Of a DNA stretch of 64,000 nt, positions 2,277 to 56,970 are shown in pieces (the stretch's first letter is position 1; each line of letters starts with the position of its first letter). Origin of the DNA: a virus. The translations under genes were made by a program, and so were the position numbers. Location of the stretch: positions 1-64,000 of the IMG/VR virus record IMGVR_UViG_3300042882_000899. One strand, written 5' to 3'. A model generated the notes under the pieces. That model saw only the letters and a list, made by a program, of their open reading frames with translations, did not search any database and was not told the DNA's origin.

Positions 2277-2281
2277 TTAGC

Positions 2282-9559: not shown

Positions 9560-9696
9560 AATTGTATAAAAATAGAGACTGGTTACATAGGAGATATGTA
9601 ATACAAAGAAAAACAATGTCTGAAATTGCACAAGAGTGTGGCGTAACTGTTATGACCATACATAGAGCATTAAAAGAAAAAGGTTTAATAAAATGA
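9556..9696 (+). CDS. small helix-turn-helix protein (absent from ORF track)
   Basis: MKLYKNRDWLHRRYVIQRKTMSEIAQECGVTVMTIHRALK. Confidence 0.7.
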   Translation: MKLYKNRDWLHRRYVIQRKTMSEIAQECGVTVMTIHRALKEKGLIK

Positions 9697-10034: not shown

Positions 10035-10051
10035 AAGTATAATATATTAAT

Positions 10052-10588
10052 ATGGAAATTGAATTAGCTGATCATTTTGATCGAATGAATAAAGTAGTTG
10101 AAGAGCTTCTTAAGGGAAACACGCCCACTCAAATTGCTACAATTACTGGTCTCAAAAGGGCAGAGGTTTTAGAGCATATTGACGAGTGGAAAAAAGTAGT
10201 AAGAAACGATTCAAGCGCTAGAGATAAAGCAAAAGAAGCAATCTCTGCCGCAGACCAGCACTATGCAATGCTTATAAATGAAGCTTGGGAGCTAGCAAAA
10301 GAAGCCAAAATGCAGGGCCAACTTGGAGTTCAAGCTACAGCGATTAAGTTAGCAGGAGATATGCAAAACAAGAAAGTCACCATGCTTCAGGACGTAGGCC
10401 TTCTTGAAAACAATGAGCTTGCTTCACAGATATCAGACACAGAAAGAAAGCAAGAGATTCTGGTTAAGATACTTAAAGAGGTTTCTGCAACTTGCCCTAA
10501 ATGCAAACTTGAAGTTTCAAAGCGTCTATCTCAAATAAATGGAATAGCAGAGCCAATAGAAATTGTAGAGGCGGTGTCAAATGGTTAG
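10052..10588 (+). CDS. HTH protein, putative terminase small subunit
   Basis: N-terminal HTH, helical, upstream of terL; leaderless TATAAT at 10038. Confidence 0.5.
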   Translation: MEIELADHFDRMNKVVEELLKGNTPTQIATITGLKRAEVLEHIDEWKKVVRNDSSARDKAKEAISAADQHYAMLINEAWELAKEAKMQGQLGVQATAIKLAGDMQNKKVTMLQDVGLLENNELASQISDTERKQEILVKILKEVSATCPKCKLEVSKRLSQINGIAEPIEIVEAVSNG

Positions 10589-11168
10589 CAGTCCAATAAA
10601 TCTAACCAACTTTGAGATACTTGGAGAAAGAATCTATGTCTATAAAAATTTTATATCTGAGTCTGAGATTAATGAGGTTTTAGCAGAGGTAAAAAATGTT
10701 GAAGACTGGTATGTTGGTGAATATTTTACAAACACAATGGCAACATATAACACAAAGACTGTTGACTACCTAAGAGAAAGAATACAAAACCTTCTAGACG
10801 ACACTCATTTTGCATCAGCCTCAAGCCATGTAGTTAGAATGGTTGAGGGTAACACGTGGGGCGCTCACTCAGATGTTCATGATTTTGAAGAAATTGAGGA
10901 ATTAGCTAAACAGTATGAAGAAGGCGAAGACTACATAGATAGACAGCTCTCGGTATTTGGAACAATTGTTTATTATCAGCTTCCAAAAGAAGGAGGCGGT
11001 CTTTTCTATACAAAGCAAAATTTAGAGTATAAGCCTTCTCCAGGAGATTTAGTGATACACGGATCAGATGATTATTGTGAGCATGGAGTTAAAGAAGTCC
11101 TAGATGGTGAAAGATACGCCACTTCTGGGTACATATACAAAAATGTAAAGATTAAAAATGGAAATTGA
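10581..11168 (+). CDS. 2OG-Fe(II) oxygenase
   Basis: HSD...GGGL...PGDLVIH...HGV...RY. Confidence 0.8.
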   Translation: MVSSPINLTNFEILGERIYVYKNFISESEINEVLAEVKNVEDWYVGEYFTNTMATYNTKTVDYLRERIQNLLDDTHFASASSHVVRMVEGNTWGAHSDVHDFEEIEELAKQYEEGEDYIDRQLSVFGTIVYYQLPKEGGGLFYTKQNLEYKPSPGDLVIHGSDDYCEHGVKEVLDGERYATSGYIYKNVKIKNGN

Positions 11169-12948
11169 TTTTAATGATATTATCGACATCCTTGACGGCG
11201 AAGAGTTTGACGAAAGGCCAGTGGATCTTGAGACTTTTGTTACAGACAAAAACTATTTAGGTTTACCAGAGCTATCTAATCACCAATACACTCTGATAGA
11301 AAAATCTTCTCAAATTTATAAAGAGTCTACCCTTATAAAATTGTTTGGCGAAGAAGAGGGGTCTCTTAGATACAGGCAAACTTGCAATGAGGTTGTTGCA
11401 CAGTTAGGCAAGGGAAGCGGTAAAGATTATTGCTCCACTATATCTGTAGCTTATATAGTTTATTTACTATTATGCTTAAGAGACCCAGCATCATATTATG
11501 GGAAGCCTCCAGGTGACTCAATTGATATTATTAACATTGCTATTAACGCACAGCAGGCAAACAATGTTTTCTTTAAGGGGTTTAAAAACAGAGTAACACA
11601 CTCACCTTGGTTTGCAGGTAAGTACTTTGAAAAAGCTTCTGAGATAAAGTTTGACAAAAATGTTACTGTATATTCTGGACACTCCGAAAGAGAGGCGTTT
11701 GAGGGGTATAACGTTCTTGTTGCTGTTCTAGATGAAATCTCTGGATTTGCTTTGGACAGCACAAGTGGGCATGATCAGGCTAAGACCGCAAGCGGAATAT
11801 ATGATATGTACAGGGCCTCTGTAGACTCACGTTTTCCAGATTACGGTAAAGTGATATTGCTTTCTTTTCCAAGATTTAAGAATGATTATATACAGCAAAG
11901 ATATGATGAAATAATATCAGAAAAAGAAACAATATTGATGTCTCACAAGTTTAAGCTAGATCCAGATCTGCCAGACAATACAGTTGGCAACGAGTTTGAA
12001 ATATTTTGGGATGAAGATCAGATAATTTCTTATAAATATCCTAGAGTTTATGCAATACGTAGACCAACATGGGAAGTTAATCCTACAAGAAGCATAGAAG
12101 ACTTTAAGATTGCTTTTTATAGAGATGTAACTGATGCTCTAGGAAGATTTGCCTGTATGCCACCAGAAGCAATTGATGCTTTTTTTAAGTCTCGTGAAAA
12201 AATTGAAATGGCGTTTAATGATCTTTCATTAGCCGTAGACGGATTTGGGAGATTTGAAGAGTGGTTTGTTCCTCAAGATGATAAAGACTACTTTATACAT
12301 GTTGACTTAGCTCAAAAGCATGACCATTGTGCAGTGTCCATGGCTCATGTTGAGAAGTGGGTGAGTGTAAAGGTTACAGATACTCATTCTCAACCAGCAC
12401 CAATTGTTAAAGTTGATGCAGTTATGTATTGGACACCAACTTCGGATAAGTCAGTGGATTTTGCTGAAGTCAGAGACTATATATTATCACTAAGGTCCAG
12501 GGGTTTTAATATTAGGCTATGCACATTTGACAGATGGAACTCGCACGATATGATGCAGCAATTAAGACAGTACGGAATTAGCACAGAAACATTGTCTGTG
12601 GCAAAAAAACATTATGATGATATGGCTATGGTAGTTATGGAAGAAAGATTAAACGGTCCGCATATTCCACTTTTAGTTGATGAGTTACTAGAGTTAAGAA
12701 TTATGAGGGACAAGGTAGATCACCCTAGAAAGGGGTCTAAAGACTTGGCGGATGCTGTGTGCGGGTCAATATATAATGCTATCAGCATGACCAGAACGGC
12801 ATTTGGAGATATAGAGGTACACGACTATTCGTCAGTAAAAAAACAGTATAGGGAATCTTTATCTCAAGAAAGCCATAATTTAATTAAAGCCCCATCAGCA
12901 ATGCCAAAAGATCTTTCTGATGCAATAAGTGGAATGGAAATAGTATGA
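11158..12948 (+). CDS. terL: terminase large subunit
   Basis: Walker A GKGSGKD, Walker B VLDE, nuclease HVDLA...D and KDLADA. Confidence 0.9.
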   Translation: MEIDFNDIIDILDGEEFDERPVDLETFVTDKNYLGLPELSNHQYTLIEKSSQIYKESTLIKLFGEEEGSLRYRQTCNEVVAQLGKGSGKDYCSTISVAYIVYLLLCLRDPASYYGKPPGDSIDIINIAINAQQANNVFFKGFKNRVTHSPWFAGKYFEKASEIKFDKNVTVYSGHSEREAFEGYNVLVAVLDEISGFALDSTSGHDQAKTASGIYDMYRASVDSRFPDYGKVILLSFPRFKNDYIQQRYDEIISEKETILMSHKFKLDPDLPDNTVGNEFEIFWDEDQIISYKYPRVYAIRRPTWEVNPTRSIEDFKIAFYRDVTDALGRFACMPPEAIDAFFKSREKIEMAFNDLSLAVDGFGRFEEWFVPQDDKDYFIHVDLAQKHDHCAVSMAHVEKWVSVKVTDTHSQPAPIVKVDAVMYWTPTSDKSVDFAEVRDYILSLRSRGFNIRLCTFDRWNSHDMMQQLRQYGISTETLSVAKKHYDDMAMVVMEERLNGPHIPLLVDELLELRIMRDKVDHPRKGSKDLADAVCGSIYNAISMTRTAFGDIEVHDYSSVKKQYRESLSQESHNLIKAPSAMPKDLSDAISGMEIV

Positions 12949-13193
12949 GTATATACCAAGAAAAAGCAAAGCAATGTAAATGTTGCAGCAAGCACGTACC
13001 ACTGCCTACTAGGCTAAAGGAGTATGACGGCACCCTTGTATGCCCAACTACATTTGATAACATTCATGAATACAAAAGGGTGTGGCTATCTGTTGGTAAA
13101 AGGCCACCAGGAAGCATAAGAAAACATTTTTCTGAGTATGTACAGGATATAGTGGAAAAAACTATTGACAGTATAGACAATGAAATACTATAA
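12945..13193 (+). CDS. hypothetical protein
   Basis: Coupled ORF with Cys motifs. Confidence 0.55.
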   Translation: MSIYQEKAKQCKCCSKHVPLPTRLKEYDGTLVCPTTFDNIHEYKRVWLSVGKRPPGSIRKHFSEYVQDIVEKTIDSIDNEIL

Positions 13194-13202
13194 TATGACT
13201 AG

Positions 13203-13276
13203 GCAACAATAGCTTAGTCGGTTAAAGCCCCGAACTCATAATTCGGTAATCGTAGGTTCAAGTCCTACTTGTTGCA
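13203..13276 (+). tRNA. tRNA with CAT anticodon (Met or Ile2)
   Basis: GCAACAA/TTGTTGC acceptor, CCGAA-CTCATAA-TTCGG arm, GTTCAA T-loop. Confidence 0.85.
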
Positions 13277-13287
13277 CAGGAGGAATA

Positions 13288-13629
13288 ATGTTTAATGACT
13301 TTGATGATGAAGAAGAGATGATGTTAAAAATTCAACATTATTTAGATATCGGCGCCATAAGAATAGTTGGTTTTGCAGAAAATGGTGAGGCAATATTTGA
13401 GTTAAATGAGGAAACAACATCACTTCTGGCGCCAGATCTTTGGCAGGCACATAAAGAGTATGTAGACTCAGAGCTTATTGATTTAATGAATAATGGTCTT
13501 ATGGAAGTTGAATATGATGAAAATCTAAATGCTACATTTAATTTTACGGAAGAAGGATTTAAGATTGCAGAGTCTAAGGGTATTGTACCAATAGAAGATA
13601 TTGAAAGGTTTAATCCGTATGAAAATTAA
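13288..13629 (+). CDS. acidic hypothetical protein
   Basis: AGGAGG SD, ORF. Confidence 0.7.
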   Translation: MFNDFDDEEEMMLKIQHYLDIGAIRIVGFAENGEAIFELNEETTSLLAPDLWQAHKEYVDSELIDLMNNGLMEVEYDENLNATFNFTEEGFKIAESKGIVPIEDIERFNPYEN

Positions 13630-13717
13630 AATAGAGTATTATGTTTATAAAATTTATTCTTATATAAGAAAAAAAATAGTAAAGCCTAAAAGAGACAAGG
13701 AAGACTTTATTTACTAA
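13619..13717 (+). CDS. 32-aa peptide ending DFIY, coupled to the carbamoyltransferase
   Basis: MKIKIEYYVYKIYSYIRKKIVKPKRDKEDFIY; TAATG overlap. Confidence 0.45.
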   Translation: MKIKIEYYVYKIYSYIRKKIVKPKRDKEDFIY

Positions 13718-15144
13718 TGATAATTCTTGGAATTAACGAAACATCTCACGACGCTTCAATATCCTTAATCAAAGATGGAGAAATACTTTTTGCGGGGCAT
13801 GCAGAAAGATATAGCAAAAAGAAAAATGATTGGTACAACAACAAAAACATATATTTTGATATGCTTAACTATGGCACTCCAACACATATAGCATACTATG
13901 AGCATCCCCAACTCAAAAGATCACGAATACTATTAAGAGGTGGATCAGCCGACTGGAAGCCCAACATTCCAATGAATCTTCCAATTAAATACTTTAATCA
14001 TCACTACTCTCATGCCTGTGCTGGATACTATACAAGTAAATTTAATGATGCATGTATTGTTGTGCTTGATGCAATAGGTGAATACAATACCTCCACAATT
14101 TGGGTTGGAGAAGGAGATAAAATTAGATTAAAGTATAAGCAGAACTATCCAGTTAGTTTTGGTTTATTCTATTCTGCATTTACAAAACTAATTGGGCTTA
14201 TGCCAAACCAAGAAGAGTACATAATGATGGGTATGGCAGCCTATGGAGACTGGAGAAGATATTATAAAGAGGTTAATGAGTATTTTCCATCATACTCAAA
14301 ACAAAAATATAATTTTCACAAAGGTATAGATGACTGGGGAATTGTAATTACTGAGCAAGACAGGTTTGATATAGCTGCAGCAGTGCAAATGGTTTATCAG
14401 CAGAGGCTAAATGATTTTATGCACATGGCCCATTCGGTTACTGGCAAAAGTAATTTGGTGTTCATGGGAGGGTGTGCGCTTAATTCATCTGCAAACACAA
14501 TTCTTTGGAATATATTTAACATGGTGTGGATTATGCCAAATCCAGGAGATGCTGGTAGCTCTTTAGGAGCAGCAGCAGCACTGTATGGAAAGCACATTAG
14601 CTGGAAAAACCCTTACCTAGGATATGATTTAGGCGGAGAGTATCCAGTTCAGAAAATTGTTGATGGAATATTAAAGGATGGAATTGTGGCGGTGGCAACA
14701 GGAAGAGCTGAATATGGCCCAAGGGCTTTAGGAAACAGATCAATACTGGCAGACCCAAGAGATCCAGATATTAAAAACAAAGTTAACTTAATCAAACAAA
14801 GGGAATTGTTTAGGCCATTTGCTCCAGTAGTAATGGAAGAATATGCATCAGAGTGGTTTGACATGGATTTCCCAAGCCCATATATGCAGTATACTGTTAA
14901 GTGTTTAAAGCCAGATAAGATTCCATCGGTTGTGCATGCAGATGGAACATCAAGGGTTCAAACAGTAAATAGAGATCAGCATAGAGGTCTTTACAGGGTT
15001 TTAAATAAGTTTTATCTAGAAACTGGAGTACCAGTACTTTTAAATACAAGCTTAAACATAAAGGGCCAACCATTATTAAATGATGAACCTGATATAATTG
15101 CATGGGAAAATGAATATAATTTTAAGATATTGAGGGGAGACTAA
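13717..15144 (+). CDS. carbamoyltransferase (NodU/CmcH family)
   Basis: SHDAS, HHYSHA, GGCALN, EYGPRALGNRSIL, LNTSLN. Confidence 0.93.
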   Translation: MIILGINETSHDASISLIKDGEILFAGHAERYSKKKNDWYNNKNIYFDMLNYGTPTHIAYYEHPQLKRSRILLRGGSADWKPNIPMNLPIKYFNHHYSHACAGYYTSKFNDACIVVLDAIGEYNTSTIWVGEGDKIRLKYKQNYPVSFGLFYSAFTKLIGLMPNQEEYIMMGMAAYGDWRRYYKEVNEYFPSYSKQKYNFHKGIDDWGIVITEQDRFDIAAAVQMVYQQRLNDFMHMAHSVTGKSNLVFMGGCALNSSANTILWNIFNMVWIMPNPGDAGSSLGAAAALYGKHISWKNPYLGYDLGGEYPVQKIVDGILKDGIVAVATGRAEYGPRALGNRSILADPRDPDIKNKVNLIKQRELFRPFAPVVMEEYASEWFDMDFPSPYMQYTVKCLKPDKIPSVVHADGTSRVQTVNRDQHRGLYRVLNKFYLETGVPVLLNTSLNIKGQPLLNDEPDIIAWENEYNFKILRGD

Positions 15145-23677: not shown

Positions 23678-23910
23678 TGATCTGTCTTAACGAGTCAGGC
23701 GTTAATGTATTAAAAAAAAGAGCAGAGTCTAGTAACCTAGAAATTCGCTGGAATAACTACGATGTAATATTATGGCAAAAAGACTCTTCTGGATTCTTTA
23801 ATGTAAACGGAGAGTATAGAAAAAATAGCTGGGGCATTAGCAGTAAGTTTATTGTTAATGAAAATGGAGTTTGGGCTTTTCCAAAAAAATATGTCAAATA
23901 TTTTAAATGA
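23677..23910 (+). CDS. hypothetical protein
   Basis: Coupled ORF. Confidence 0.6.
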   Translation: MICLNESGVNVLKKRAESSNLEIRWNNYDVILWQKDSSGFFNVNGEYRKNSWGISSKFIVNENGVWAFPKKYVKYFK

Positions 23911-24202
23911 TTTAGACTCTGATGAGCAATCTATAAGGTGGTGGCACCTTGCCGCATGCAGTGGCATGGATACAAATTTATTTTTTGATAAATATGAATC
24001 AGATATAAATATGTCTAAGGCCATAGATCAATGCTGTTTATCTTGCCCAGTTATGGCAATTTGTTATAAAGCTGGTGTAGATAATAATGAGTACGGAGTT
24101 TGGGGCGGTGTATTTTTGTCAGCAGGGCTAGTAGATAAAATAAAAAATGTTCATAAGACAAAAGATATATGGAAACAAGTAAAGGCAAAACATAGTGTCT
24201 AA
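23891..24202 (+). CDS. whiB: WhiB-family transcription factor
   Basis: AAC..MD..LFF, CxxCPV...C, GVWGG. Confidence 0.9.
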   Translation: MSNILNDLDSDEQSIRWWHLAACSGMDTNLFFDKYESDINMSKAIDQCCLSCPVMAICYKAGVDNNEYGVWGGVFLSAGLVDKIKNVHKTKDIWKQVKAKHSV

Positions 24203-41412: not shown

Positions 41413-41509
41413 TGAGTTCCGCCTTTCGTTTTGATTATACCATTGACCACTGACATTTGTAAATGAAGGGGGACCCGCCTCAGCAGAGGCAGGTCCCCAC
41501 AGTTAGTTG

Positions 41510-41662
41510 TTACTTGACGTTCTTCTTGTCTGTGAAGACTACGCCTTCTTGTGCTGCCTTGCTGATAGCTCCTAGAGCTGCTGCTGAAAAGCGACCACGC
41601 TTGCCTACAGAAATGCCCTGGGTCTTTAGGTACTCACGAGTTGTTGTTGGTGTTGATGTCAT
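41510..41662 (-). CDS. Lsr2-like DNA-binding-domain-only protein (absent from ORF track)
   Basis: TREYLKTQGISVGKRGRFSAAAL; SD GAAAGGA; followed by a GC hairpin. Confidence 0.7.
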   Translation of the reverse strand: MTSTPTTTREYLKTQGISVGKRGRFSAAALGAISKAAQEGVVFTDKKNVK

Positions 41663-41812
41663 TTAGTTTGATCCTTTCTAGATCGAGTTGTTATATATAT
41701 TATATCCGAATTTCGGGGATTTGTAAATAGAGTCGTAAAGCAATATTTTTGCCCGTCTCCCTTAGATTGATGACCGTTATGTCCGAATTGTCCATAACGG
41801 TCCAACCTATCT

Positions 41813-43309
41813 TTATTTAGTTGTTACTTCTAGTTCTACTACATTGTATGGCTCAATCAGGTCATCAGTTGGAATCTCAGTCCAGCCCTCTGCAGGAATC
41901 CTAAGCGCTGACTCCCATGCAAGGTCGTGAGACTCTGCGTTAATGATTACATAAAACTCTTGCTTGCGGTCACCATAGATTTTATAGTCTTGTCTCATAG
42001 TCCCACCTGTTCTACCCTATCTTTAATTAGTTTAGCAATGATGTTATGGGCCTCGATGTTTTCAGTTTCGCTGCCACCCCATAGCAAAGCTTGGGCCTTG
42101 CTAAGTTGATCGTTTAAGTATTCATCACTCATCTTCATCTTCGTCTTCTTCCTCTTCCCACTCAGGGTCAGTAATGTAGTCACGATTCAACATCCACTCT
42201 AGGACATCGTCTTGGTGCTGTTCTGCACCGTATTCCAAGGAAAAGCCTTGTCCAGCCTCCACAGCCTCGCACAGGTGGTTCCACATGTCATCTTGGGTAA
42301 CCTTAGCATTGTAGTTCTCATCATCTAAGATGTTATTAATAGTTGACCATGTCCATAGCCAAACAAGCGATAGGCCAAGGTCGGTGCTGTCTAGAATCTC
42401 TAAACACTTGTTTAGTTTATCTTTATCTTCAGGCTTCATTCAATGGCTCCGAATCTATTCTCTCTTGAATTGCAAATGAGAGTTGATATGTTAGTTGATA
42501 CAGGTCAACTAGCATGTCGAGTCGTCCTTCACACTCTGTACGGACCATAGAGTCCATTGCCTCTTCGGACCTTTCTTCTTGTGCTAATGCCTCTGATAGG
42601 TCTTGCTCAGCAATTAGCATTAGATTCTTTAGTTCACCATGCAAGATATCAAGGCCTGATACTCCAGCATTAACCATGCGTTGCAAATGGGGCGGGAGCC
42701 CAATGTCTTCTGCAGTCATATTCATTAATATACCCTTTCGTTATCAAGCATTATATCAGTTGCCACTGACAAAATATGTTCCATAGTATCAATTGCTCCT
42801 GTGTAATATGCATCTGATTCAAAGTACTCATCTTCATTTAAAGGTATGTTATTTCTAGCATCCTCTAAATCTTGTTCTAAACTAATCTTATGTATCTTTA
42901 GATATTCCATAAAATGTGATGACCTAGTCAAAATAACCCTCCGCCCATAGTCCCTGGAGAAAACTAACTGTCATCTCCAAATCATTTCTAAGTTGTGTCT
43001 TGTCCATTAAATCGGACGGGGATCGAAGATAGAATAACTTAGCATCATGTACTGAGTTAATCATAGTATCTAAATCTTTTTTCTCATATCCTAACATCAT
43101 AAGCAGAACTCATCTCCTTCAATATATCCATAGTATTCATTGTATGATTGTTTTAAGTTATCAGGTGCAAATTGCATAAACTTAAATTCTGCATAATCTG
43201 TACCTTCATCTAAATTAGCATTGTTCCATTGCTCAAATAGATGTTGCTCAATATCTACTTGAATTGCTCCAAGAAGATGTTCTCCTACTGTATCTGTAAA
43301 TGCTTCCAT
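41813..43309 (-). other. run of seven coupled small hypothetical ORFs
   Basis: 41813-41998, 41995-42138, 42125-42439, 42429-42725, 42725-42931, 42924-43100, 43097-43309. Confidence 0.7.
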
Positions 43310-44043
43310 TATGCTTCCGCCTTTCTATATTCAGGAACTTTGGTTTCTAAGTATACACTATGGGTCTGACATTCTTTAACAGCCTCTAGGTCTGCCTCGC
43401 CAAGCCAGTTGCAAGCACCGCAGATTTCTCCACATTCATTCTCGCAGTATTCCATTTGATTAGTTGCATCACAATCACGGCACATGTTATCATATTCTGA
43501 TTCTGAGATAACTTCACCACGGAGGAATTCCATTTCCCCACCCCAACCTGTTTCTTCTTCATATGATAAAGTAAATAGTAGTGTTGGGTATTGTGCAGAT
43601 AGTTTAGAGATAGCACCAAGAGGCCGTGACCATGCAGTATTAAAGTTATAATGAACTACATAGTTCTCGCCATTCTCGGCTTCCTCGATAGTTGTATCAG
43701 GATACTTGTCATCTTCTGATACAGCAACATCCCACTTAGTACCCCACTCACGAACATTAAAGTTGTACCAGTCATTGGTCTCAAACTTCATTGCCTGAGA
43801 AAAGTCGGTGGAACGAGGAGGTTGTCCATGATATACCTCATCAGTAATACCAGCATCCTTATATGAATAGATATTATGAAAAGCAAAGATAGGATTAACA
43901 TACTTAGTCTGCTTGACATCATATGATAAATCACCTACAGGTGTAATAGAATAAACAAATGGCTTATTCATCTGCTTGATTAGATTTTTAACTTGCTCAG
44001 GATTACCTTCAATAGTTAATCCATTAAATACCCAGTTTGGCAT
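43309..44043 (-). CDS. DUF1281/YubB-ferredoxin-like protein
   Basis: MPNW, WY.FN..WGTKWD, FNTAWS.P. Confidence 0.75.
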   Translation of the reverse strand: MPNWVFNGLTIEGNPEQVKNLIKQMNKPFVYSITPVGDLSYDVKQTKYVNPIFAFHNIYSYKDAGITDEVYHGQPPRSTDFSQAMKFETNDWYNFNVREWGTKWDVAVSEDDKYPDTTIEEAENGENYVVHYNFNTAWSRPLGAISKLSAQYPTLLFTLSYEEETGWGGEMEFLRGEVISESEYDNMCRDCDATNQMEYCENECGEICGACNWLGEADLEAVKECQTHSVYLETKVPEYRKAEA

Positions 44044-44267
44044 TTTATATCCTTTCGTTGATATGTTCCTATTATATATTAGACCACTGACAAATGTCTA
44101 TATGATATGGGTCACAAACGATAATTTGACCCCTCCAAATTAGTGTTTACACTTCTATATGTAAATCAATATAGATGTGTAAGCTTTGTGGTCAAGATCA
44201 TAGCAAATTCCAGGGAATATAATTGACAGTCGTAACGACAATATGCTACCCTCATGTCTTTGCGGGC

Positions 44268-44297
44268 AAAGAAAAACCCCCCAGCTAGTGGGGGGTC
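44268..44297 (-). terminator. intrinsic terminator
   Basis: CCCCCC-ACTAGCT-GGGGGG followed by TTTTTCTTT. Confidence 0.75.
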
Positions 44298-44417
44298 TTG
44301 AATAATGGCTGCCTGGATTTCCAACGAAAGAAATAAACCCGCTTTACTTAGCGCCTGGCCATTGAGACTGATAGACGCACCATTATATTTCCTATTAAAA
44401 CCAGGACCTTAGTCCTA
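44268..44417 (-). ncRNA. candidate small RNA with an anti-leader loop
   Basis: TGGTATAAT at 44423-44431, 5' hairpin, loop AUUUCUUUCGUUGG, intrinsic terminator. Confidence 0.55.
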
Positions 44418-44423
44418 GTCTAA

Positions 44424-45356
44424 TTATACCATAACTAGTCGACTGTATTTGTCTACGAATGCCGCCAAGGATAGACTGAATACAACCGTGCTCATATCTT
44501 CCTCGTACAGTGTAAACGTTTGAGAGGCCCAGTTAATTACAGGCACCTTGTGTTCGTTGTCCCCTAGTTGATTTACGTAGAGCCCCCATGATAATGTTTG
44601 ATTCCAGTCTTCTCCAATTAAATGAGAGATTGCAATACGTGTTGCATATGATGGGTCCTGCCAACGTGTCTCTGCAGCGCTAACAGCATTTGCCAGTTTG
44701 GCTAGCATGTCGTGGCCTGCCCAGTGCCCGTATAAAAATATTGTATCGCCTTTTTGGTCTTTAAACCCAAAGTTTGCTCTGTCGCCCATATTATTCCGCC
44801 GTTTCTAAAGTAGGTACTGCTTCTTCTATTTTGTTTAATTCTATCACTTCGTATGCGACCTTGTCAAGGCCACGCTTGCTTGCATTGTAGTGGTGACCGC
44901 AAAAGAACAGTTCACCTTCTACTAGTTTAACTAAGTACATTGCTTGAGCTGTGTTACATTGATCACATGCTATCCATCTTGTTAGATCTTCCGTTGTCAT
45001 AGTTTTCCTCCTTCGATCATCTCAGATAGACGGTCAAGGATCCAGGAATCAATGTCGTTGATATCAATCTCTGACAACTTTTCCATGATCTCTTCACGAG
45101 CAAACTTATATCCATCTGCCCAGCCATCTTTATATTCTGACATAATCTCTCCTTAGTAACCTGTTGTTTCGTAGTCTGATATGTATGATTCAGTTAAGTT
45201 GTACTTATCACGCAGACGACTTACTTTCTCAATACTACCAGTTCCAATGTTGAATGTCAATGGAGCCATTCTCTGCGGGTCGAGTCCGTTGATTTCTGCA
45301 TCCCAATAGGCCCTCTCCATGGAGAGCCTATTAGGAGCGGTGAGTTCAAAATACAT
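44424..45356 (-). other. four small hypothetical ORFs
   Basis: 44424-44789 (LYGHWAG), 44791-45000 (CxxC..CGHH), 44997-45143, 45153-45356. Confidence 0.7.
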
Positions 45357-46012
45357 TATGCCTCCCTAACGTTGCAAACTTCGGTGTCATCAATTGTGAT
45401 GTTTCCGTCATTTGATTCAGCATATAATGAATCTGTTATAACTGACTCAAGGTCGTACTCTGAATAATCTGATAGAACATCATATGAATATGTTCCAGTA
45501 ACTTCTACAGATGCAGTAAACTGAACTTCCTTGATAAGTTCGATACCAAGCGCTTCAGCAATGTCACGCAATGTATCTTGGTCTTGTGAATCTGCATATG
45601 CCTCGCAGATGATTTCCTTGACTGCATCAATCTTAGATTGAATAGAACTTAAAGTCTTCTGCGATTGACGGGCATTGTGAAGGTCCCATTCAATACTGGT
45701 AACCTTATCTGTAATGTACTCAGGATTAGAATAACCGTTAATCTTTTTATATGTTACTAATAGATTAGAGTTATATGTATCTGGTACCAAGTGCTCTGTT
45801 GTTTCCATTTTTTCCTCTTTCGTTTGGGTTAAGGGTGTAATTGTAGCATGCTCCACTGACAATAATGTAGTCTTACGCCCGCATGGGCATGTGAGTTCTG
45901 TCACACCTGAAGGAAAGCCAAATCCATCAGATGATGTAAGTTCAATTAAACAATCGCAATGCTCAGGATCACATGCGAATGTGTATTTACTTGATATGAG
46001 TTCGTTGGTCAT
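45356..46012 (-). CDS. hypothetical protein with long (46012) and short (45808) in-frame starts
   Basis: Two nested promoters; Cys-rich N-terminal extension. Confidence 0.7.
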   Translation of the reverse strand: MTNELISSKYTFACDPEHCDCLIELTSSDGFGFPSGVTELTCPCGRKTTLLSVEHATITPLTQTKEEKMETTEHLVPDTYNSNLLVTYKKINGYSNPEYITDKVTSIEWDLHNARQSQKTLSSIQSKIDAVKEIICEAYADSQDQDTLRDIAEALGIELIKEVQFTASVEVTGTYSYDVLSDYSEYDLESVITDSLYAESNDGNITIDDTEVCNVREA

Positions 46013-46113
46013 GAAGAGAATTATACACCAGGCCACTGACATTTACAATAGATTCCAGGGAATATTTGTGTGAGTCGTAACACACTTTTTGCCCCCTTAG
46101 CTTTGAGGGCGCT

Positions 46114-46190
46114 TGGCGATCCATATCGGACTTGAACCGACGGCCTCTACCGTGACAGGGTAGCGCTCTAACCAACTGAGCTAATGGACC
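46114..46190 (-). tRNA. tRNA-Asp(GTC) with encoded CCA
   Basis: Canonical cloverleaf, CTACC-CTGTCAC-GGTAG. Confidence 0.92.
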
Positions 46191-46201
46191 AAGAAAAATT
46201 G

Positions 46202-46229
46202 TGAGCAGTTTTTAATCATGCTCAGGATT
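46202..46229 (-). ncRNA. 3'-UTR pseudoknot motif, copy 3
   Basis: AATC-CTGAGCAT-GATT-AAAAAC-TGCTCA. Confidence 0.55.
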
Positions 46230-46236
46230 TTATTTA

Positions 46237-47244
46237 TTAAAACGCAGAAACTAATTTTTTAATTTTATTTTTTTCTGCGGTTAGAATTGGGTCAAAGCCT
46301 GATGCACCAGCCATAAGTGTTTCAGAATTGCCACGACCTGAACGATAATAGTCAAGGCGTTCAGTAAGTGCATTGAAAGCACCCCACTTTGTACCCTTGA
46401 TGTTAGCGTTAGTTGGTGAGTTATGATAAAGGTCATCAAGCAAAACGACTTTATTCTCCCACTTAGTTAGCGCAACTTTAGCAGCATCCTTATCTGGCTT
46501 AGGATAAATTGTCTGAATCAACTTTGAGAATTCTGCATCAGTAATTGATTGAGAATAAAGTGCTTGCGCTTCCTTCTCAAATTCATCAAAGTATCCAAGA
46601 GCAAGACCAAGAGTCTCACGAGCAACTTGGATGCGACCTTCAACAGATTGCGTGTGGCGAATCTTAAATGATTGCTTTGCATTACGCATTGCAAGATTAA
46701 GAGTGTTTTGGCATACTACACGAACAGGGGTAACAGCAGCCTGAACAGCCACAGACCCGTCATGAGATGTCCATACGATTAGATACAACTTAGTTGCATC
46801 ATTTGCGCCTTGTGGGTCAAGCACCATTGTGCGAGGAATGTCCACAGTACCAAATACAACTTTACCGCTACGCAATGAGCCAGCAGACTCCCAGCGACAG
46901 TCAGCGTTTGCATCATGAATTGCATCAGCAAATGCAAATAGTTCCTCATTCTGCACAGGCTTGTAACGCTTGCCAACAGTGGCAAGAACATCAGTACCCT
47001 GATTGAATGGGTTATCACGAATAACTAACTGAGCATTTGATACATCATTCCATGTATCGGAGATGTGGTCAGTTAGTGGAGATAGACGAACATTCCAATT
47101 GGAAAGTTTTGCCTCATCCAACATCATTTGAGTTGTAACATCCTCATCTTGTGTAAAGATGCGATTTGCGAGATTGTGCCATGCAGGTGCGCCACGCAAT
47201 GCAAAAGCAACTTGACCATTTTCGGTTTCTAGATTATGAGCCAT
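46237..47244 (-). CDS. DUF932-family phage/plasmid protein
   Basis: MAHNLE...PAWH, Y.PVQNEE.F, SHDGS, TPVRVVCQNTL, RHT. Confidence 0.88.
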   Translation of the reverse strand: MAHNLETENGQVAFALRGAPAWHNLANRIFTQDEDVTTQMMLDEAKLSNWNVRLSPLTDHISDTWNDVSNAQLVIRDNPFNQGTDVLATVGKRYKPVQNEELFAFADAIHDANADCRWESAGSLRSGKVVFGTVDIPRTMVLDPQGANDATKLYLIVWTSHDGSVAVQAAVTPVRVVCQNTLNLAMRNAKQSFKIRHTQSVEGRIQVARETLGLALGYFDEFEKEAQALYSQSITDAEFSKLIQTIYPKPDKDAAKVALTKWENKVVLLDDLYHNSPTNANIKGTKWGAFNALTERLDYYRSGRGNSETLMAGASGFDPILTAEKNKIKKLVSAF

Positions 47245-47444
47245 TTATTTTTTACCTTTCGTTTGATTAGTTGTAAGTATAACAGAACCCACTGACAAAT
47301 ACTAGTCTAGTTACATTATGTCTCATTATGTGGGATGTGATCAATCTCACAAAATTCCAGGGATATCCACAGGCAGTCGTAACCCTGTGGATAACCCCTC
47401 AGATTTACGGGCCAGCTGCAGAGAATGCAGCCAGTGTTAGATCT

Positions 47445-47699
47445 TTAAAGACCTAACTCATCCCTAGTTAATTTATTTGTTCTCCCATAATTAATAACTT
47501 CGGACGGGAGGTAAAGAGCAGTAGTCTTAGTCTTCTTCAATGTATCATACACATAAGCACGTACATCACCAAAGAAGTTACGTCGATTAGAAAATGCTAA
47601 CTCAGTTAAGTATTCTTTATCTACGCCTTGCTCTGAATAAATTGTTAAATCATTTAACTTATTTGCGTCATAAATTTCTACACGAAATCTATTTTTCAT
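47445..47699 (-). CDS. hypothetical early protein
   Basis: SD plus ORF. Confidence 0.65.
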   Translation of the reverse strand: MKNRFRVEIYDANKLNDLTIYSEQGVDKEYLTELAFSNRRNFFGDVRAYVYDTLKKTKTTALYLPSEVINYGRTNKLTRDELGL

Positions 47700-47734
47700 T
47701 TTGTTACCTTTGTTAGTGGTTGTCCCCGAAGGGA

Positions 47735-47761
47735 GAGCAGTTTGGCGACATACTCAGGTCG
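47735..47761 (-). ncRNA. 3'-UTR pseudoknot motif, copy 4
   Basis: CGAC-CTGAGTAT-GTCG-CCAAAC-TGCTC followed by a UUCG hairpin. Confidence 0.55.
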
Positions 47762-47770
47762 TTGGATTGT

Positions 47771-48187
47771 TTAGAGATACTTAGCAATTTGCTTCATTGT
47801 AGAAGCATTTACTGTTTCCTCATCTGTCATCTTGAGAATTGTGAGAGCATTTGTGATGTCCTCTTTCATTTCCTTATACTGCCATTGTTGTATAGTCTCA
47901 AAGTCCTTCTCAGGCTCAGCAGGGAAATCGCTTTCGCCTGTTGTGATGTCAAAATCAACATTGAGAGTTTTGTTCCATTGACGATAGTTTGTGCGAAGGT
48001 TCTCAGCCTTTGAGAAGCGGTCAATAGCCCACTTTCCAATTTCCTTCTGCCACTTTTCATAAGCCTTCTTATACTTTGCTTCGTTGGCTTCTTGTGAGGC
48101 ATAGTTCTTTTCTATTTCTGCTAGACGAGTCTCTAGTGCCTTGATTACCTTTGGTGTTGCCACCTTTACTGTGATTGCTCTACTCAT
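47771..48187 (-). CDS. hypothetical early protein
   Basis: Own promoter and leader. Confidence 0.75.
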   Translation of the reverse strand: MSRAITVKVATPKVIKALETRLAEIEKNYASQEANEAKYKKAYEKWQKEIGKWAIDRFSKAENLRTNYRQWNKTLNVDFDITTGESDFPAEPEKDFETIQQWQYKEMKEDITNALTILKMTDEETVNASTMKQIAKYL

Positions 48188-48273
48188 TGTTATTACCTTT
48201 CGTTGGTTGTTTAGTTTGTTTGAGTATTATAGCAGGGGGGTCTGACATTTCTGCGACCCCCCATGCCGTTAGA

Positions 48274-49171
48274 TTATACGCCTAGTAGGGTTTGAGCAGA
48301 TACCGAAGTCCAACGAGTTTCCTTGTTGGGCATTTCTAGTAGCACACGCACCGAGCCAGATGTTTGTGGGTGGATTTCCTTAATCACACCTGTTTTCTTT
48401 GACTTGAGAGTGGTGAATAAATCGCCCACCTGATACAACTTGTCGTTGATTGTCATTTATTGCCTCTTTTCTTTGTTAGGTTGGTAATTATAGCATTGGG
48501 GTCTGACATTAGTCTAGCCCTATCTCACTATGTGAGAAAGTTATTGTGTGATAAAAATCACAAGTATTCGGTTAGATCGCCATCCATGATCTCATTTAGC
48601 TCTAAGCCTTCTGAGTCTGCGATTGCTTCCCATAGATCCATTTCATTAAAGTCTCCATCAGGATGTCTCTCTGATAAGATAGAATAAAGATTATTCATTA
48701 GTAATCCTCCTCTGGTAGCCAAGCGTCTAAGTGGTGTTGTTCAGCAATTGCCCAAGCGGGTGCTGTTGTTCTATCTTTGTATTTCACGCCTTCAGGAAGT
48801 GCTATTGGTGCATCGTATTCTCCCGCATGGATAGCATCAATGGCATCAATGCAGGGTTGCACCATAGAAAGTGGGACGGGTGGGTAATGATTACCCTGTA
48901 AGTGATAGCCTAGTGCTACCTCTAAATCTAATTCAGTTAAATCTAATGCTGTGTTGTATCCCATTTATTCTGCCACCTTTAGAATAGCCCATGAGCCACC
49001 CTTGTTAATTTCATCTAGTGCAGGCTTAAGTGTTGGTGCAATAAGTGTTTTTAGCATTCCTTCTAGCATAAGTATTTGGTCTGACTTATCAAGTGCAAGT
49101 AGCATAGCACCTGTTGGATTAGTTTCATCAACTTCAGTTATGAAGCGGAGAGCGTGTTCGATAGTTATCAT
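48274..49171 (-). other. small early ORFs 48274-48456, 48698-48964, 48965-49171
   Basis: Each behind a promoter or coupled; HLQGNHYPPVP motif in 48698-48964. Confidence 0.7.
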
Positions 49172-49454
49172 TTTTTGCCTTTCGTTGTTGGTATAAGAGT
49201 ATTATAGCGTAGGCCACTGACAAATTGTGCAACACTCCCAAGATTAATCTAATTTATTTTGTGATTAATCTCACAAATTTCAGGGGGTTGTGGATAACGC
49301 CCGTAAGCCTGTGGATAACCCCGCAGTATTGCGGGCTTCCCGCAGCTTTTATTGATCAAATTTATTTTTATGTTTTATTTTGCGTGTGTATTTTTTTTTA
49401 TTACGAACAGGTTGCGCCGCATTACTGCGGCGCAATTCCTGAATTCGTTTTACT

Positions 49455-49646
49455 TTATCTCGAAGTGAATTTTGGAACATTGTATCCACTCGCTTCGTGA
49501 AATCGTTTTACATCAAATCGCTCATTATCTTTAGCAAACATTTCAGCGAAATCATTTACCATTTTAGAAAAAACAGCGGGGTGAGTTTTATCGCTAGCAT
49601 ACTTTAGAATTTCTGCGGTTGCGACATAATCTTTGCGTGTCATCAT
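49455..49646 (-). CDS. hypothetical protein, paralogue of the C-half of 24493-25005
   Basis: MTRKDYVATAEIL...FAKDNERFDVKRF. Confidence 0.75.
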   Translation of the reverse strand: MMTRKDYVATAEILKYASDKTHPAVFSKMVNDFAEMFAKDNERFDVKRFHEASGYNVPKFTSR

Positions 49647-49849
49647 TTTACTACGACCCTTCTGCCTTCACGATAAAAAACTTTTGTGTGGCATTTGCCA
49701 GTTGGCGTGTAAAGATTTACAGTTGCGTATTCATCAGCAAATCCCCAATCGGTAAAGCGGAAAAAGTTTTCCCACGCACCAAATTCGTTTTCGTATTCTG
49801 CCGACCAATGCGGAGCATTTGAGTCATAGGCGCAAGTTAGTTTATACAT
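49643..49849 (-). CDS. hypothetical protein, paralogue of the N-half of 24493-25005
   Basis: MYKLTCAYD...TDWGFADEYATVNLYTP. Confidence 0.75.
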   Translation of the reverse strand: MYKLTCAYDSNAPHWSAEYENEFGAWENFFRFTDWGFADEYATVNLYTPTGKCHTKVFYREGRRVVVK

Positions 49850-52547
49850 TAGTTGTTCTCCAATTCTTTTACACAATCGCATTGTTCGCAATCATAGTCA
49901 TTATCATTACCAAAAAAGATTACTCCGTATCCGTGGCAATCTATACAATCTATTCTTATTAGTGAGTTTATCATTTAGTTTTCCTTTCGTTTTGTTATTG
50001 CTTATTATAGCCTAAGCCACTGACATTTATTCGGCTTCGGGGGTGGTGAATAAGGCTCCCTCGTTGAGTAGCCCTACCTCAATGTTAAACAGTTCATCAG
50101 GGGTGGCTTCGGATAAATCTACCCAGCCCGCACCATTTTGATCAATTCTAAAAATCTCAATGTATCCCATTAGTGTTGTTCCTCGCAATCTTTGTCATAG
50201 TCAAATCCGCAAAAGTAGCAACCCATAAACTCTAGGTGCTCTATACAGTAATACTTAAATTGACTTTCATCACAGCAAAAATGTTGCTCGTCTGCGATTT
50301 CATAGAAATCGGTTTTGTCGATTATGTTTAGCATTAGTTTTCCTTTCGTTTGCTTATTTAGTTATTGTACCGCAAGGGTCTGACAAATTAGTCAGACACC
50401 TTGACGGCTAAATAGCGGTATGTATCTTTTAGATTTAGCGGGGCTGAATAATGAGGTCGAACCTGAACCTTGTATGTATCACAATTCGCATACCATACAT
50501 CATCATTTTTTTCCGCTGAGATAATTTCACCCTTTAGAGTTTTTGAGTGATAAGTTTTTCCTACAAGTAGGCTTTCGATAGAATAGACATTTGCTGACAT
50601 TTGAGTCCGCCTTTCGTTTGTTGATAGTAGCAATTATAGCCTATCCCACTGACATTTTCTAATTACTAGCGAGTAATTCCAAATAATGAGACGCTCAAGT
50701 CATGTGATAAAAATCACAAAATCTCGGGCGTGTCGCAAATTCCAGGGGTTGTGGATAACTCCCGTAACCCTGTGGATAACCCCGCTCTTTTGCGGGCGCA
50801 TCAACTTTTGTCAAGTCGACACGCCGTTACTTATTTAAAATCTTTAAAAATTTCCTCAAGCTTTAAGATTTGCTCATCTGTTAAATGATCAATTTCAATT
50901 GCTTTTTCAAATCCAAAAAAATCTGTCATTCGCTCATCAACCTTTCTAAATCGTCTGCGTTATCTTTCATGTAATTATCTTGAAAATCTAGTAACGCCTC
51001 ATTGTAAGCAATTGGGTCACAATCTTTTAAGATTTGGGAGGGATAGAAAACAGCGTTACCCATTTCATAGACGGGATAACAATCATCAAGCATTTCATCA
51101 AATAATTGTTTAATCGCAAAAGTAATTTCGAAATCTAGCATTAGTTAGTTTCCTTATCTTTTAGAATGTTAAGAATAATTTGTAATTGTTCAACAGAAAG
51201 AAGTGCTTGAGCACAACCCCATGTAAATGCTAAATCCATTTCTTGATAATGTTTTTTAGCAAGTGTATTTATTTCTTGCGTTAATTCGAAATTAGTTTTC
51301 ATTTAGATACATACCAATCTGTCCACATAGGAAGTTGCTCAGGGTCACTATCATAGTAGTAACGCTCAATGTTTTGTTCACAATCCATACAGAAAGTGTA
51401 TTGCTCATCTCCGATTTCTGAGATAGCGGATTTCATAGGGTTATGTTCTTTACATAGCGTGTTTAGTGTAGTCATTTGAGACCACCTTTCTTTTTGTTTG
51501 TATGTCGCTATTGTAGCAGGGGGGTCTGACATTTTGACCTGTTTCTCGGGCGTGTCGCAAAACTATTTTTGTGATAAAAATCACATAAATCCTGGGGTTT
51601 TCCACAGATGCCCGTAAGCCTGTGGATAACTCCCGCAAGTACTTGCGGGCCAGCTTGATAATGTCAAGCCGACACGCCGTTAGGCTAGTGTGACTCTTGC
51701 CACAATTCACGCATCTCTGCCATGAAGTCATGGTAGGCGATCCTCGCCATGTATAGGGCGGGAATAGCAATGGCTAATTGTACTAGTGTAGTAAGTAGTC
51801 TATTCATAGTGTAGCAACCGCCTTTATGTCCATTACATTAGCAGTAAACTTTTTACTCTTTCCTAATTCGCTCTCATTAAGAGCATTGATTAGATTATCA
51901 ATAGCCTTTACATCATGAGCAACATTATCGATTGAGATTAGTTTAGAGCCTTGCCAAATTGAGTAAGTGATAGTCATTATTAGTTCTCCCATGTTAGTGC
52001 GTATAGTTTTGCTAGTGCTTCATCATCTTCATCATCAAAGTCATCAAAGTCAAGCGCTGGCGCTTCATCTAGTTCATCATCAAGGTGACGATAGGCGTCT
52101 GATACATCTGATTGGATAGTGTCCCACTTAGAGACGGAATTATTTTCGTATGAGTATGCGTATGACATTATTTATTCATCTCCTTAGCGATAGCCTCTGA
52201 CTTAGTTAGTGCCTCTAGGGCGATTGCTAGGGAGGCAAGGCGTTGCGCCTCTACCATTTGCTTGTATTCATCTAGGTTCATTTATGACCTTCTTTCGTTG
52301 TTGTTATTCTGTAATTGTAGCGTATGGGTCTGACAAATTGGGGAGGTTGGCTAGTGTGTCGGTGTGATACTAGTCACACTCTCCACATGGGCATTGAGGA
52401 AACTCTCGCTCTTGCTTTATGCGGTTAGCGAGTCGCTCTACCTTTAGGTATGTATCAGCGGAGGCACCTCGGAAAGATACTACCTTTCCTTCAGCGATAA
52501 GGTGAGCAGCCTTAGCAATCTTTTGCTCTAGTGTTAGTGAAGTCATT
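49849..52547 (-). other. about a dozen further 35-75 aa early ORFs
   Basis: e.g. 50388-50600, 50926-51141, 51299-51475, 51804-51977, 51980-52168; coupled TAATG junctions and SDs. Confidence 0.65.
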
Positions 52548-52805
52548 ATTTAACTTCCTTTCTTTTTGTTATACCTTAAGCATAGCATGGGGGACTGACA
52601 AATTGACGCAAATCTCGGGCGTGTCGCAAAAAAACCTTTGTGATTAGCATCACACTCACGCTCAAGGCTCAAATAATTATGGGCGCACTATCCAAAATGT
52701 CCGTTTTGTCTAGGATGTGTATCATACATGTAAAAAATATATTAACATTTTTAGAAATCCTAAAAAGCAGTCGACTGGAATATAATGCGGTGGTACAATA
52801 GAAAC

Positions 52806-53546
52806 ATGGAAGATAAAACCTACAAAGAAGCTAACGATATATTCGGAGACAATCAAATATTGTTTATGAATCACGGGTTTTGTCCAGTATCAGAAGATAT
52901 ACAGGATCTTGAATTTAAACATCAGGTAGAGTTATATAATCAAGCTATTAAAGAAATAGATTTAGATGACAAAGTAGTTTTAGAAATTGGTTGCGGAAGA
53001 GGCGGGGGATCAAAATGGATTTCAAGCAAACACAATGTGCCTACATATCATGCTTGCGATATATCTGAAGAAAATATAAACTTTTGTAATAAAACAAATA
53101 CTAATAATAATATAATATACTCAATTATGGATTCTCAAAATTTACAATATCCAGATGATTTCTTTGATCTTGTAATATGCGTAGAGTCTTCTCACAATTA
53201 TAAAAACATGGAACTATTTTTTGAGAACGTAAGACGTGTGTTGAAAAAAACTGGTCAACTGGTTTTATTAGATAACTATGTTCTTGGAGAGGAAGCAATC
53301 CAAAATAAGCTGATGTCTATAGATAGCGTAAAAGGGTCGGCAGTAGGATTTAATGTTTTAGAATATGTCGACATTACTGAAAATGTAAAAGCATCCTGTA
53401 AAGAAGATATCGAATTAATAGACAATTGGGTTTCTGACATAAACGCAGCGGAAAAATTAAAGTCTATATCTTCTGGTTCATACAAAAGATATGAAAATAA
53501 CCGCTGGGCCTATTTTAAATTTAAATTTGGTATGATAGATCTATGA
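52806..53546 (+). CDS. class I SAM-dependent methyltransferase
   Basis: FMNHG, VLEIGCGRGGG, FDLVICVESSH; leaderless start after TACAAT. Confidence 0.85.
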   Translation: MEDKTYKEANDIFGDNQILFMNHGFCPVSEDIQDLEFKHQVELYNQAIKEIDLDDKVVLEIGCGRGGGSKWISSKHNVPTYHACDISEENINFCNKTNTNNNIIYSIMDSQNLQYPDDFFDLVICVESSHNYKNMELFFENVRRVLKKTGQLVLLDNYVLGEEAIQNKLMSIDSVKGSAVGFNVLEYVDITENVKASCKEDIELIDNWVSDINAAEKLKSISSGSYKRYENNRWAYFKFKFGMIDL

Positions 53547-56784: not shown

Positions 56785-56970
56785 TACTTCCCCCTAAAAA
56801 ATTTATCCATAAGTTTTTCAATTTTGCATAACCAGGATTTACATTTATGATCTTTGTAGTTATTGAAATTAGCAAAGTACGGCCTTGTAGCAACTTGCTT
56901 AAAGTGATCTCTTGCCATTTCTTAATTATACCACCAATAATAAAAAAACCCCATTTCTGGGGTTTTCTTA

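Follow-up and report, generated by a model that had tools for sequence, protein, structure and literature searches.

We analysed the first 64,000 nucleotides, hereafter the window, of IMG/VR virus record IMGVR_UViG_3300042882_000899. The record is the uncultured viral genome of a lake phage, a single linear contig of 114,960 bp with a CheckV completeness of 96% and a guanine-plus-cytosine (GC) content of ~37%. Between positions 41068 and 52672, the minus strand of the window hosts a block of ~45 small open reading frames (ORFs) and one tRNA gene (tRNA-Asp), which is read leftward as a row of at least 16 short transcription units. Almost none of the block proteins has a family match, and the block returned no match in a megablast comparison with the INPHARED phages. 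Its largest gene (46237..47244) encodes a DUF932 protein of 335 amino acids (PF06067, 190 bits; phrog_1221). The units are preceded by copies of one promoter element, TGTCAG-N10-TANNNT, which recalls the promoters activated by the bacterial DNA-damage regulator PafBC. We refer to these copies as class-1 promoters.

A pattern search detected 16 copies of the element in the window, all of them on the minus strand and all between positions 41434 and 52600. In dinucleotide-preserving shuffles of the window, the same pattern occurred 0.63 times on average and never more than three times. No further full copy was found outside this interval on either strand of the whole 114,960-bp genome, where the bare hexamer TGTCAG occurs 53 times. 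Relaxing the hexamer to TGTCRG returned no extra copies in the window, and no convincing copy with one mismatch was found within the block. The first-pass annotation had listed 15 of the sites, all on the minus strand; every coordinate was correct and the strand assignment holds for all 16, while one site, at 43350-43371 with a TATACT -10 box, had been missed. The observation is thus confirmed and lies far beyond chance.

The composition of the sites is also as first described. The -10 box is TATAAT, TACAAT, TATACT or TATGCT, and the spacer varies in sequence and is exactly 10 nucleotides long in 16 of 16 copies. Its first three bases are TGG at nine sites, ACC at six and TCC at one. The sites do lie just upstream of an ORF: at 15 of them, the distance from the -10 box to an ATG that has a GAAAGG-type ribosome site is 21-40 nucleotides, and at the site ending at 46041 the ATG follows after 7 nucleotides. 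The ATGs behind class-1 promoters are preceded by a common AACGAAAGG-type leader (15 copies). Several copies follow a terminator-like hairpin, and four or five sites (those ending at 43371, 42771, 51531, 45861 and perhaps 46041) are not purely intergenic, sharing sequence with an ORF upstream of or around them.

Following the direction of reading, the first promoter (52579..52600) has the TCC-type spacer and a TATGCT box, with the ATG at 52546, 32 nucleotides past the -10 box. It is followed by two promoters with ACC spacers and TACAAT boxes, one at 52314..52335 (ATG 52281) and one at 51510..51531 (ATG 51475), the latter TG-extended and overlapping the end of the upstream ORF. The promoter at 50633..50654 (TGG, TATAAT, ATG 50600) has kept TGTCAG and TATAAT in 11 of 11 unique orthologues, and the one at 50364..50385 (ACC, TACAAT, ATG 50334) reads TGTCGG in one orthologue. 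Two promoters with TGG spacers and TATAAT boxes lie at 50004..50025 (ATG 49974) and 49201..49222 (ATG 49171), and two with ACC spacers and TG-extended TATAAT boxes at 48487..48508 (ATG 48456) and 48226..48247 (ATG 48187). The DUF932 gene has its promoter at 47276..47297 (TGG, TG-extended TATACT, ATG 47244). Downstream of this gene lie the promoters at 46020..46041 (TGG, TATAAT), where the ATG 7 nucleotides past the -10 box indicates a possibly leaderless gene, and at 45840..45861 (TGG, TG-extended TACAAT, ATG 45808). The promoter at 44071..44092 (TGG, TATAAT, ATG 44043) serves a DUF1281_C protein of 244 amino acids, and the next one, at 43350..43371 (ACC, TATACT, ATG 43309), lies within the 3' end of that ORF and is retained in eleven orthologues. 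The last two, both with TGG spacers and TG-extended TATAAT boxes, are at 42750..42771 (ATG 42725) and 41434..41455 (ATG 41412), the latter preceded by a 13-bp terminator-like hairpin.

The promoters at 46020 and 45840 are 180 nucleotides apart, and their pairing is conserved in relatives. The ATG behind the first opens a frame of 218 amino acids, and the second lies inside that frame, where it serves an in-frame ORF of 150 amino acids with its own ribosome site.

To follow the element in related phages, we used the DUF932 protein as a marker and found 271 IMG/VR contigs, of which the best 80 (92-100% identity) were analysed. On the gene strand, the motif occurs 7-18 times in each of these 80, which together gave 655 unique instances with the consensus wwwTGTCAG[T/A][G/C][G/C]c...TGcTAtAAT. 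The hexamer is TGTCAG in 92% of the unique instances and TGTCGG in 8%. Its distance to the -10 box is N10 in 859 cases across the 80 related loci, and N9, N11 or N12 in none. A -35 signal was not detectable in the 655 instances: the information at 16-18 nucleotides upstream of the -10 box is at most ~0.2 bit, and TTGACA-like hexamers at this distance are not conserved as a class, with scattered weak -35-like hexamers only.

We also compared orthologous promoters in a way that is blind to the motif, by aligning the flanks of the window promoters to the relatives with BLAST and comparing the bases at orthologous positions. Across 83 unique segments free of gaps, conservation reaches 99-100% in TGTCAG and 96-100% in the -10 box, as compared to 61-93% in the spacer and 69-83% in the upstream flank. 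Among 47 unique aligned orthologues of the DUF932 promoter, TGTCAG, the TG and the -10 box do not change, and variation falls in the spacer, which even switches between the TGG and the ACC type. In five near-complete relatives, 13-17 copies lie in one ~11-kb block on one strand and at most two elsewhere, as opposed to at most four per strand for a reversed control pattern. The cluster is also kept in remoter relatives, whose terminases are 64-75% identical, on phage contigs binned into metagenome-assembled genomes (MAGs). Judged from these alignments, the element is under purifying selection.

The first-pass annotation had assigned the geometry to the PafBC type, in agreement with the published motif. 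In vivo, PafBC recognises tGTCgg(N10)tA(N3)T, a -26 element combined with a canonical -10 box and no -35 (PMC8635444). Cryo-electron microscopy places the helix-turn-helix (HTH) of PafB on positions -23 to -28, where it reads the two guanines of GTC, and has PafC contacting sigma region 4 (PMC8635444). The heterodimer is activated by single-stranded DNA (ssDNA) at its WYL domains (PMC11804915). The phage element shows the same features throughout the 16 window copies, the 655 instances and the 80 loci, namely an invariant GTC, exactly 10 nucleotides to TAnnnT, and no -35. Other assignments failed. A -35 box of the form TTGTCA would need a T that is present in only 7 of 16 sites, and its spacer would be 11 nucleotides; sigma-54 and extracytoplasmic function (ECF) promoters are ruled out by the TATAAT-type -10 box; and no link to LexA was found, as the window contains no SOS box even with two mismatches.

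We then looked for the phage form of the element in front of bacterial recA genes. Metagenomes were scanned for TGTCAG-N10-TAnnnT followed, after 60-120 nucleotides, by a RecA N-terminus with the motif GKGxxM(R/K)LG, and at least 120 contigs matched this composite pattern. Among the matches listed, the contigs range from 42 to 74% GC, 59 of the 79 RecA N-termini analysed are of the mycobacterial type (IPTGSIALD...), and 50 of 73 contigs have an actinobacterial LexA box within 200 nucleotides. The same set of listed matches includes five contigs of low GC content (43.8-47.8%), all of which carry a perfect TCGAACACTTGTTCGA box at -67 or -68. In these five loci, the order is TCGAACACTTGTTCGA box, TGTCAG-N10-TAnnnT, ribosome site and recA, and in ~40 kb of sequence the motif occurs only before recA. 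One of them shows the gene order thyX-dapA-RNase J-ftsK-rimO-pgsA-cinA-clgR-recA-recX. Its RecA scores ~600 bits against entries 1g18, 4po1, 1ubc and 2zr0, which we take to be Mycobacterium RecA, and ~487 bits against another set of entries, presumably E. coli RecA. The recA and phage promoters also have unselected bases in common (A-rich -3 to -1, W at +7 and S at +8/+9), and TGG and ACC are the commonest triplets in both sets. To judge from these loci, there are low-GC actinobacteria with the phage form of the element before recA.

The scan returned further groups among the matches listed. Sixteen contigs of high GC content (67-74%), with RecA N-termini of the form GKGAVMRLG(E/D)RPNEPIEVIPTGSTALD, carry TGTCAGTGG-N7-TAGCGT, and the start codon of these recA genes lies 7 nucleotides past the -10 box. 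If these contigs are Streptomyces-like, their elements conflict with a Streptomyces study (PMC9380542), which reports that it did not find the PafBC motif of M. smegmatis conserved in S. venezuelae. Two more groups, of 7 and 2 contigs among the matches listed, have other RecA N-termini and combine TGTCAG-N10-TAnnnT with the upstream blocks GGGTGTAAnTTTA... and TATGACCnnTTT..., respectively. The element may therefore precede recA in lineages other than the classical actinobacterial ones as well.

Outside the block, plus-strand genes are preceded by a second class of promoter, an extended -10 (TGnTAyAAT) with neither TGTCAG nor a -35. One of these, TGGTACAAT at 52791..52799 on the plus strand, diverges from the class-1 block and serves a putative leaderless methyltransferase gene, whose ATG lies 6 nucleotides downstream. 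Four genes have an ATG exactly 6 nucleotides after an extended -10, and none was found at the other spacings from 3 to 13. They lie at 52791-52808 (plus strand) and 56918-56941 (minus strand) and, in genome coordinates, at 74714-74731 and 98040-98057 (both plus strand), each with the extended -10 alone. Leaderless mRNAs are common in Actinobacteria, and the fixed spacing suggests that the four genes are probably transcribed as such. Since the ATG lies exactly 6 nucleotides past the extended -10, transcription would start 7 nucleotides after the -10 box, which places TGTCAG of the class-1 promoters at -28 to -23. As the second class does without TGTCAG, the -26 element is an addition specific to the block rather than a general feature of the phage. 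The extension itself is frequent in class 1 as well: in the 655 instances, T occupies position 14 in 66% and G position 15 in 77%, and 7 of the 16 window copies match TGnTAyAmT.

Three proteins of the lake phage are closest to Streptomyces phages of the Stanwilliamsviridae (Jay2Jay, Gilson, Blueeyedbeauty and Mandalore among them), with identities of 61-63% for the terminase, 65% for the class II ribonucleotide reductase and 51% for the DUF932 protein. A WhiB-like gene without class-1 promoter lies on the plus strand at 23858..24202 (PF02467, 45.4 bits against a cut-off of 23.6), and all close homologues of its product carry PF02467. The WhiB-like family is described as being restricted to Actinobacteria and their phages (PMC10202952). 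Given this gene, the kinship with Stanwilliamsviridae and the leaderless genes, the host is very probably an actinobacterium, and probably an uncultured one of low GC content. The first-pass annotation had reasoned in terms of Mycobacterium, which we do not retain: because the phage has 37% GC and its close kin are all uncultured IMG/VR contigs, the host should not be Mycobacterium, and M. smegmatis is a surrogate test bed at most.

The homologues of the WhiB-like protein and the RecA look-alikes gave no clue to the host, all of them being viral. A terminase scan of GTDB matched only contigs of related phages binned in MAGs of Bacteroidia, Cytophagaceae and cyanobacteria, and contigs of the family with the motif cluster in MAGs include CAILUB010000111, JBBALJ010000003/49 and CAINGU010000031. 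We rejected these bacteria as hosts, as clusters of the motif are confined to the phage-like contigs, with motif counts elsewhere in each MAG at control level. Such bins probably reflect composition-driven mis-binning of low-GC phage DNA.

The relationship with Jay2Jay also bears on the nature of the block. The homologue of the DUF932 gene occurs twice in Jay2Jay, at positions 1614 and 123707 of 133,531 bp. The two copies place the homologous block in a terminal repeat of ~11.4 kb, which is the same size as the block of the lake phage. The latter thus probably corresponds to the terminal repeat of its cultured relatives, and it is probably a host-takeover module expressed early in infection.

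The promoters of the block are accompanied by further sequence features. Palindromes of the CRP/GlxR type (TGTGA-N6-TCACA) are found in eight perfect copies against 0.06 expected, all in the block, at 45890-45905, 47336-47351, 48547-48562, 49260-49275, 50703-50718, 51570-51585, 52363-52378 and 52639-52654. Their centres lie 35.5, 45.5-46.5 or 56.5 nucleotides upstream of the first T of TGTCAG, and these steps of ~10 bp would keep them on the same helical face, as in class I CRP sites. The block also holds six nonamers resembling the DnaA box (TTATCCACA; seven in the window against 0.8 expected), located on the minus strand at 47386-47394, 49289-49318, 50750-50779 and 51621-51629. Some are paired 21 nucleotides apart or inverted (TTATCCACAGG...CCTGTGGATAA) upstream of the CRP-like sites, and the nonamers are conserved in relatives. 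A GACAC or GACAT box occurs 25 nucleotides upstream of TGTCAG in 4 of 16 promoters. We discarded it as a general element, given its presence in only ~15% of instances and the variable distance of its counterpart in Jay2Jay, where the early block (1-14612, reverse complement) contains intergenic GTGTC-GGGCCCG-GACAC palindromes 29-48 nucleotides from the -10 boxes. Elsewhere in the genome, on the plus strand, the phage encodes recombination proteins that make or handle ssDNA, namely RecA (2282-3286; PF00154, 137 bits), SSB (6958-7350), a Cas4-like PD-(D/E)XK nuclease (7934-8725) and RuvC (8993-9559), and none of their genes has a class-1 promoter.

Taken at the level of sequence, these data lead us to favour, with moderate confidence, the reading that the 16 sites are host PafBC-type -26/-10 promoters of the 'sigma adaptation' kind, activated by the PafBC of the host. 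The housekeeping RNA polymerase of the host, with sigma A, would read the 16 promoters, in which the wwwTGTCAG element at -26 takes the place of the -35. Loaded with ssDNA, the WYL-domain heterodimer PafBC would insert between the DNA and sigma region 4, which is the step termed sigma adaptation. Actinobacteria employ this hybrid design in their LexA-independent DNA-damage regulon (RecA-NDp). The phage, having no factor of its own, would in this way let the host PafBC fire or boost the ~45 small genes. The block probably sits in the terminal repeat and would then be the first DNA to enter the cell, and ssDNA arising in the course of infection, such as that at resected ends of the genome, would be the trigger.

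Several observations weigh against this reading. The early timing is inferred from the gene content and from the position of the Jay2Jay repeat. Compared with the mycobacterial motif, that of the phage tolerates less variation, with T1, A5 and G6 nearly fixed, and could belong to a different reader with a similar site. Some 65-75% of the phage promoters are TG-extended and may have basal activity without an activator; since the second class works with the extended -10 alone, the -26 element may modulate transcription rather than be required for it. Half of the promoters have CRP-like palindromes upstream, which argues for composite regulation. Finally, the reader could be a phage protein that is small and unannotated or delivered with the virion.

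This last possibility amounts to an alternative explanation, in which a small activator other than a WYL protein binds TGTCAG and recruits sigma A, having been expressed from the extended -10 promoters or brought in by the virion. It has a precedent in T4, where a phage box replaces recognition of the -35 (PMC8635444). The second class of promoters, which looks activator-free, could make such a factor first, and most of the ~200 ORFs of the phage have no family match. We searched for candidates of this kind. WYL proteins, which the first-pass annotation had not seen in the window, are absent from the whole genome and from five near-complete relatives as well, and the rest of the genome, when searched for a WYL or sigma gene as had been proposed, yielded neither. 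Sigma70_r2 and Lsr2 are also absent from the whole genome. Searches of the genome with HTH_11 and Sigma70_r4_2 returned only a small HTH protein of 50 amino acids (9544-9696, plus strand) and below the cut-off; its score to Sigma70_r4 is 22.8 bits against a cut-off of 24.1. We rejected it as the reader because it is common to Jay2Jay, Mandalore and Blueeyedbeauty, where TGTCRG-N10-TAnnnT shows no enrichment and stays at background level. As for activators of the T4 type, the genome contains no sigma, WYL, MotA-like or convincing HTH candidate, the MotA and AsiA families themselves not having been searched. The WhiB-like protein could conceivably act as a co-factor; it has no known sequence-specific site, and its gene lies outside the block with a different type of promoter. 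A phage reader would, moreover, have to converge on the hexamer, the 10-nucleotide spacing and the flank preferences of bacterial recA promoters, and transcription of a block in a terminal repeat should precede the appearance of phage proteins. We therefore consider a phage-encoded reader unlikely.

It is also possible that the promoters are self-sufficient and that TGTCAG is an operator, at which a repressor or another DNA-binding protein, of host or phage, would act in later shut-off. Many copies combine TGn with a near-consensus -10, and the extended -10 alone appears sufficient elsewhere in the genome. The block also seems to hold another off-switch feature, in the form of a candidate RNA complementary to the common leader. 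However, a repressor site needs no invariant distance of 10 nucleotides to the -10 box (859 cases against none), the TG is missing in about one quarter to one third of the copies, and the identity with the activator-type element of recA and its flanks would be a coincidence. These points make an operator quite unlikely. The candidate RNA would come from an ORF-less unit on the minus strand (44262-44431), which has an extended -10, TGGTATAAT, without TGTCAG and is closed by a strong terminator. Within this unit, AUUUCUUUCGUUGG is complementary to the common AACGAAAGG leader of the block mRNAs. The unit remains a candidate shut-off RNA, with a fold z-score of only -1.8 and no Rfam match.

Alternatively, PafBC may bind the sites mainly to be soaked up by them, so that the DNA-damage response of the host is blunted and transcription is a by-product. 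The high number of copies in a short stretch (sixteen per genome, multiplied by replication) would suit such a titration, as would the reported lack of an increase in PafBC levels under DNA stress (PMC6789036). Behind every site, however, a ribosome site and a start codon come at a short, constant distance and lead into conserved small ORFs, an arrangement that marks working promoters. Titration and activation are compatible with each other, and we regard titration as the main role of the sites as very unlikely. That the sites have no function at all, as by-products of the duplication of promoter cassettes (some of which are clearly paralogous, with common leaders and upstream palindromes) or as chance matches, is barely credible, given that shuffles never exceed three copies, that the orthologous hexamer and -10 box are fixed while their neighbours change, and that remoter relatives with terminases 64-75% identical keep the cluster.

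If activation by the host PafBC is accepted, a more far-reaching scenario can be put forward tentatively, although we think it rather doubtful. The ssDNA alarm of the host would be the immediate-early switch of the phage: resected ends of the entering genome would load PafBC locally and fire the takeover genes, the CRP-like and DnaA-like sites would feed in the nutrient state and the cell cycle as further signals, and PafBC would possibly be titrated away from host genes. The phage would then have made its own starter of an alarm that serves repair and, in other bacteria, defence against phages.

To date, sigma adaptation by PafBC is known only from the response of bacteria to DNA damage, and our literature search found no papers linking RecA-NDp/PafBC promoters to phage genes or describing this phage motif. 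If the PafBC reading is correct, a lake phage family that is abundant (271 IMG/VR contigs) starts a gene module via a stress activator of the host, which would be a new route of transcriptional takeover. The family would also offer several hundred natural variants of the -26/-10 promoter for the study of sigma adaptation, and the motif would provide a handle for host prediction in actinobacteria without CRISPR.

Compared with the bacterial PafBC promoters (RecA-NDp, recA P1-type), the phage promoters have the same TGTCRG with invariant GTC, the same 10 nucleotides to TAnnnT and the same lack of a -35. They also agree in the A-rich 5' flank and W-S-S bases seen before metagenome recA, and their predicted position of -28 to -23 would match as well. 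They differ in being phage-borne, with 16 copies in 11 kb, and in preceding tiny uncharacterised genes instead of DNA-repair genes. In addition, the phage copies have 92% A at the fifth base, are mostly of the extended -10 type, and in half of the cases lie downstream of a CRP-like palindrome. The middle promoters of T4, with a MotA box at -30 and 'sigma appropriation' by AsiA and MotA, resemble them in that another box, a short and constant distance away from an intact -10, stands in for the -35. In T4, however, box sequence and spacing are different and the factors are encoded by the phage, whereas the box of the lake phage equals that of a host regulon.

The layout of the block has parallels in large lytic phages, where the terminal redundancy of SPO1 and the first-step-transfer region of T5 are early host-takeover modules. 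These modules are likewise composed of many very small genes on one strand, in which a strong promoter, a ribosome site and a terminator serve every gene or every few genes. Their promoters, in contrast, are ordinary sigma-70/sigma-A promoters with a -35, and those of the lake phage are of the stress-activator type. A further comparison is with Jay2Jay and other Stanwilliamsviridae, which have the homologous DUF932 gene and the block layout and strand in common with the lake phage, together with the terminase, the ribonucleotide reductase, the small HTH protein and other core genes. The promoters of the homologous block in Jay2Jay are TTGTAY-17-TAGACT, which is the sigma-HrdB type with a -35. 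The absence of the motif from the Streptomyces kin, together with the remark on S. venezuelae (PMC9380542), fits a host factor better than one inherited with the phage. This comparison suggests that the type of promoter tracks the host rather than the phage family, and that it is swapped as a phage lineage changes host.

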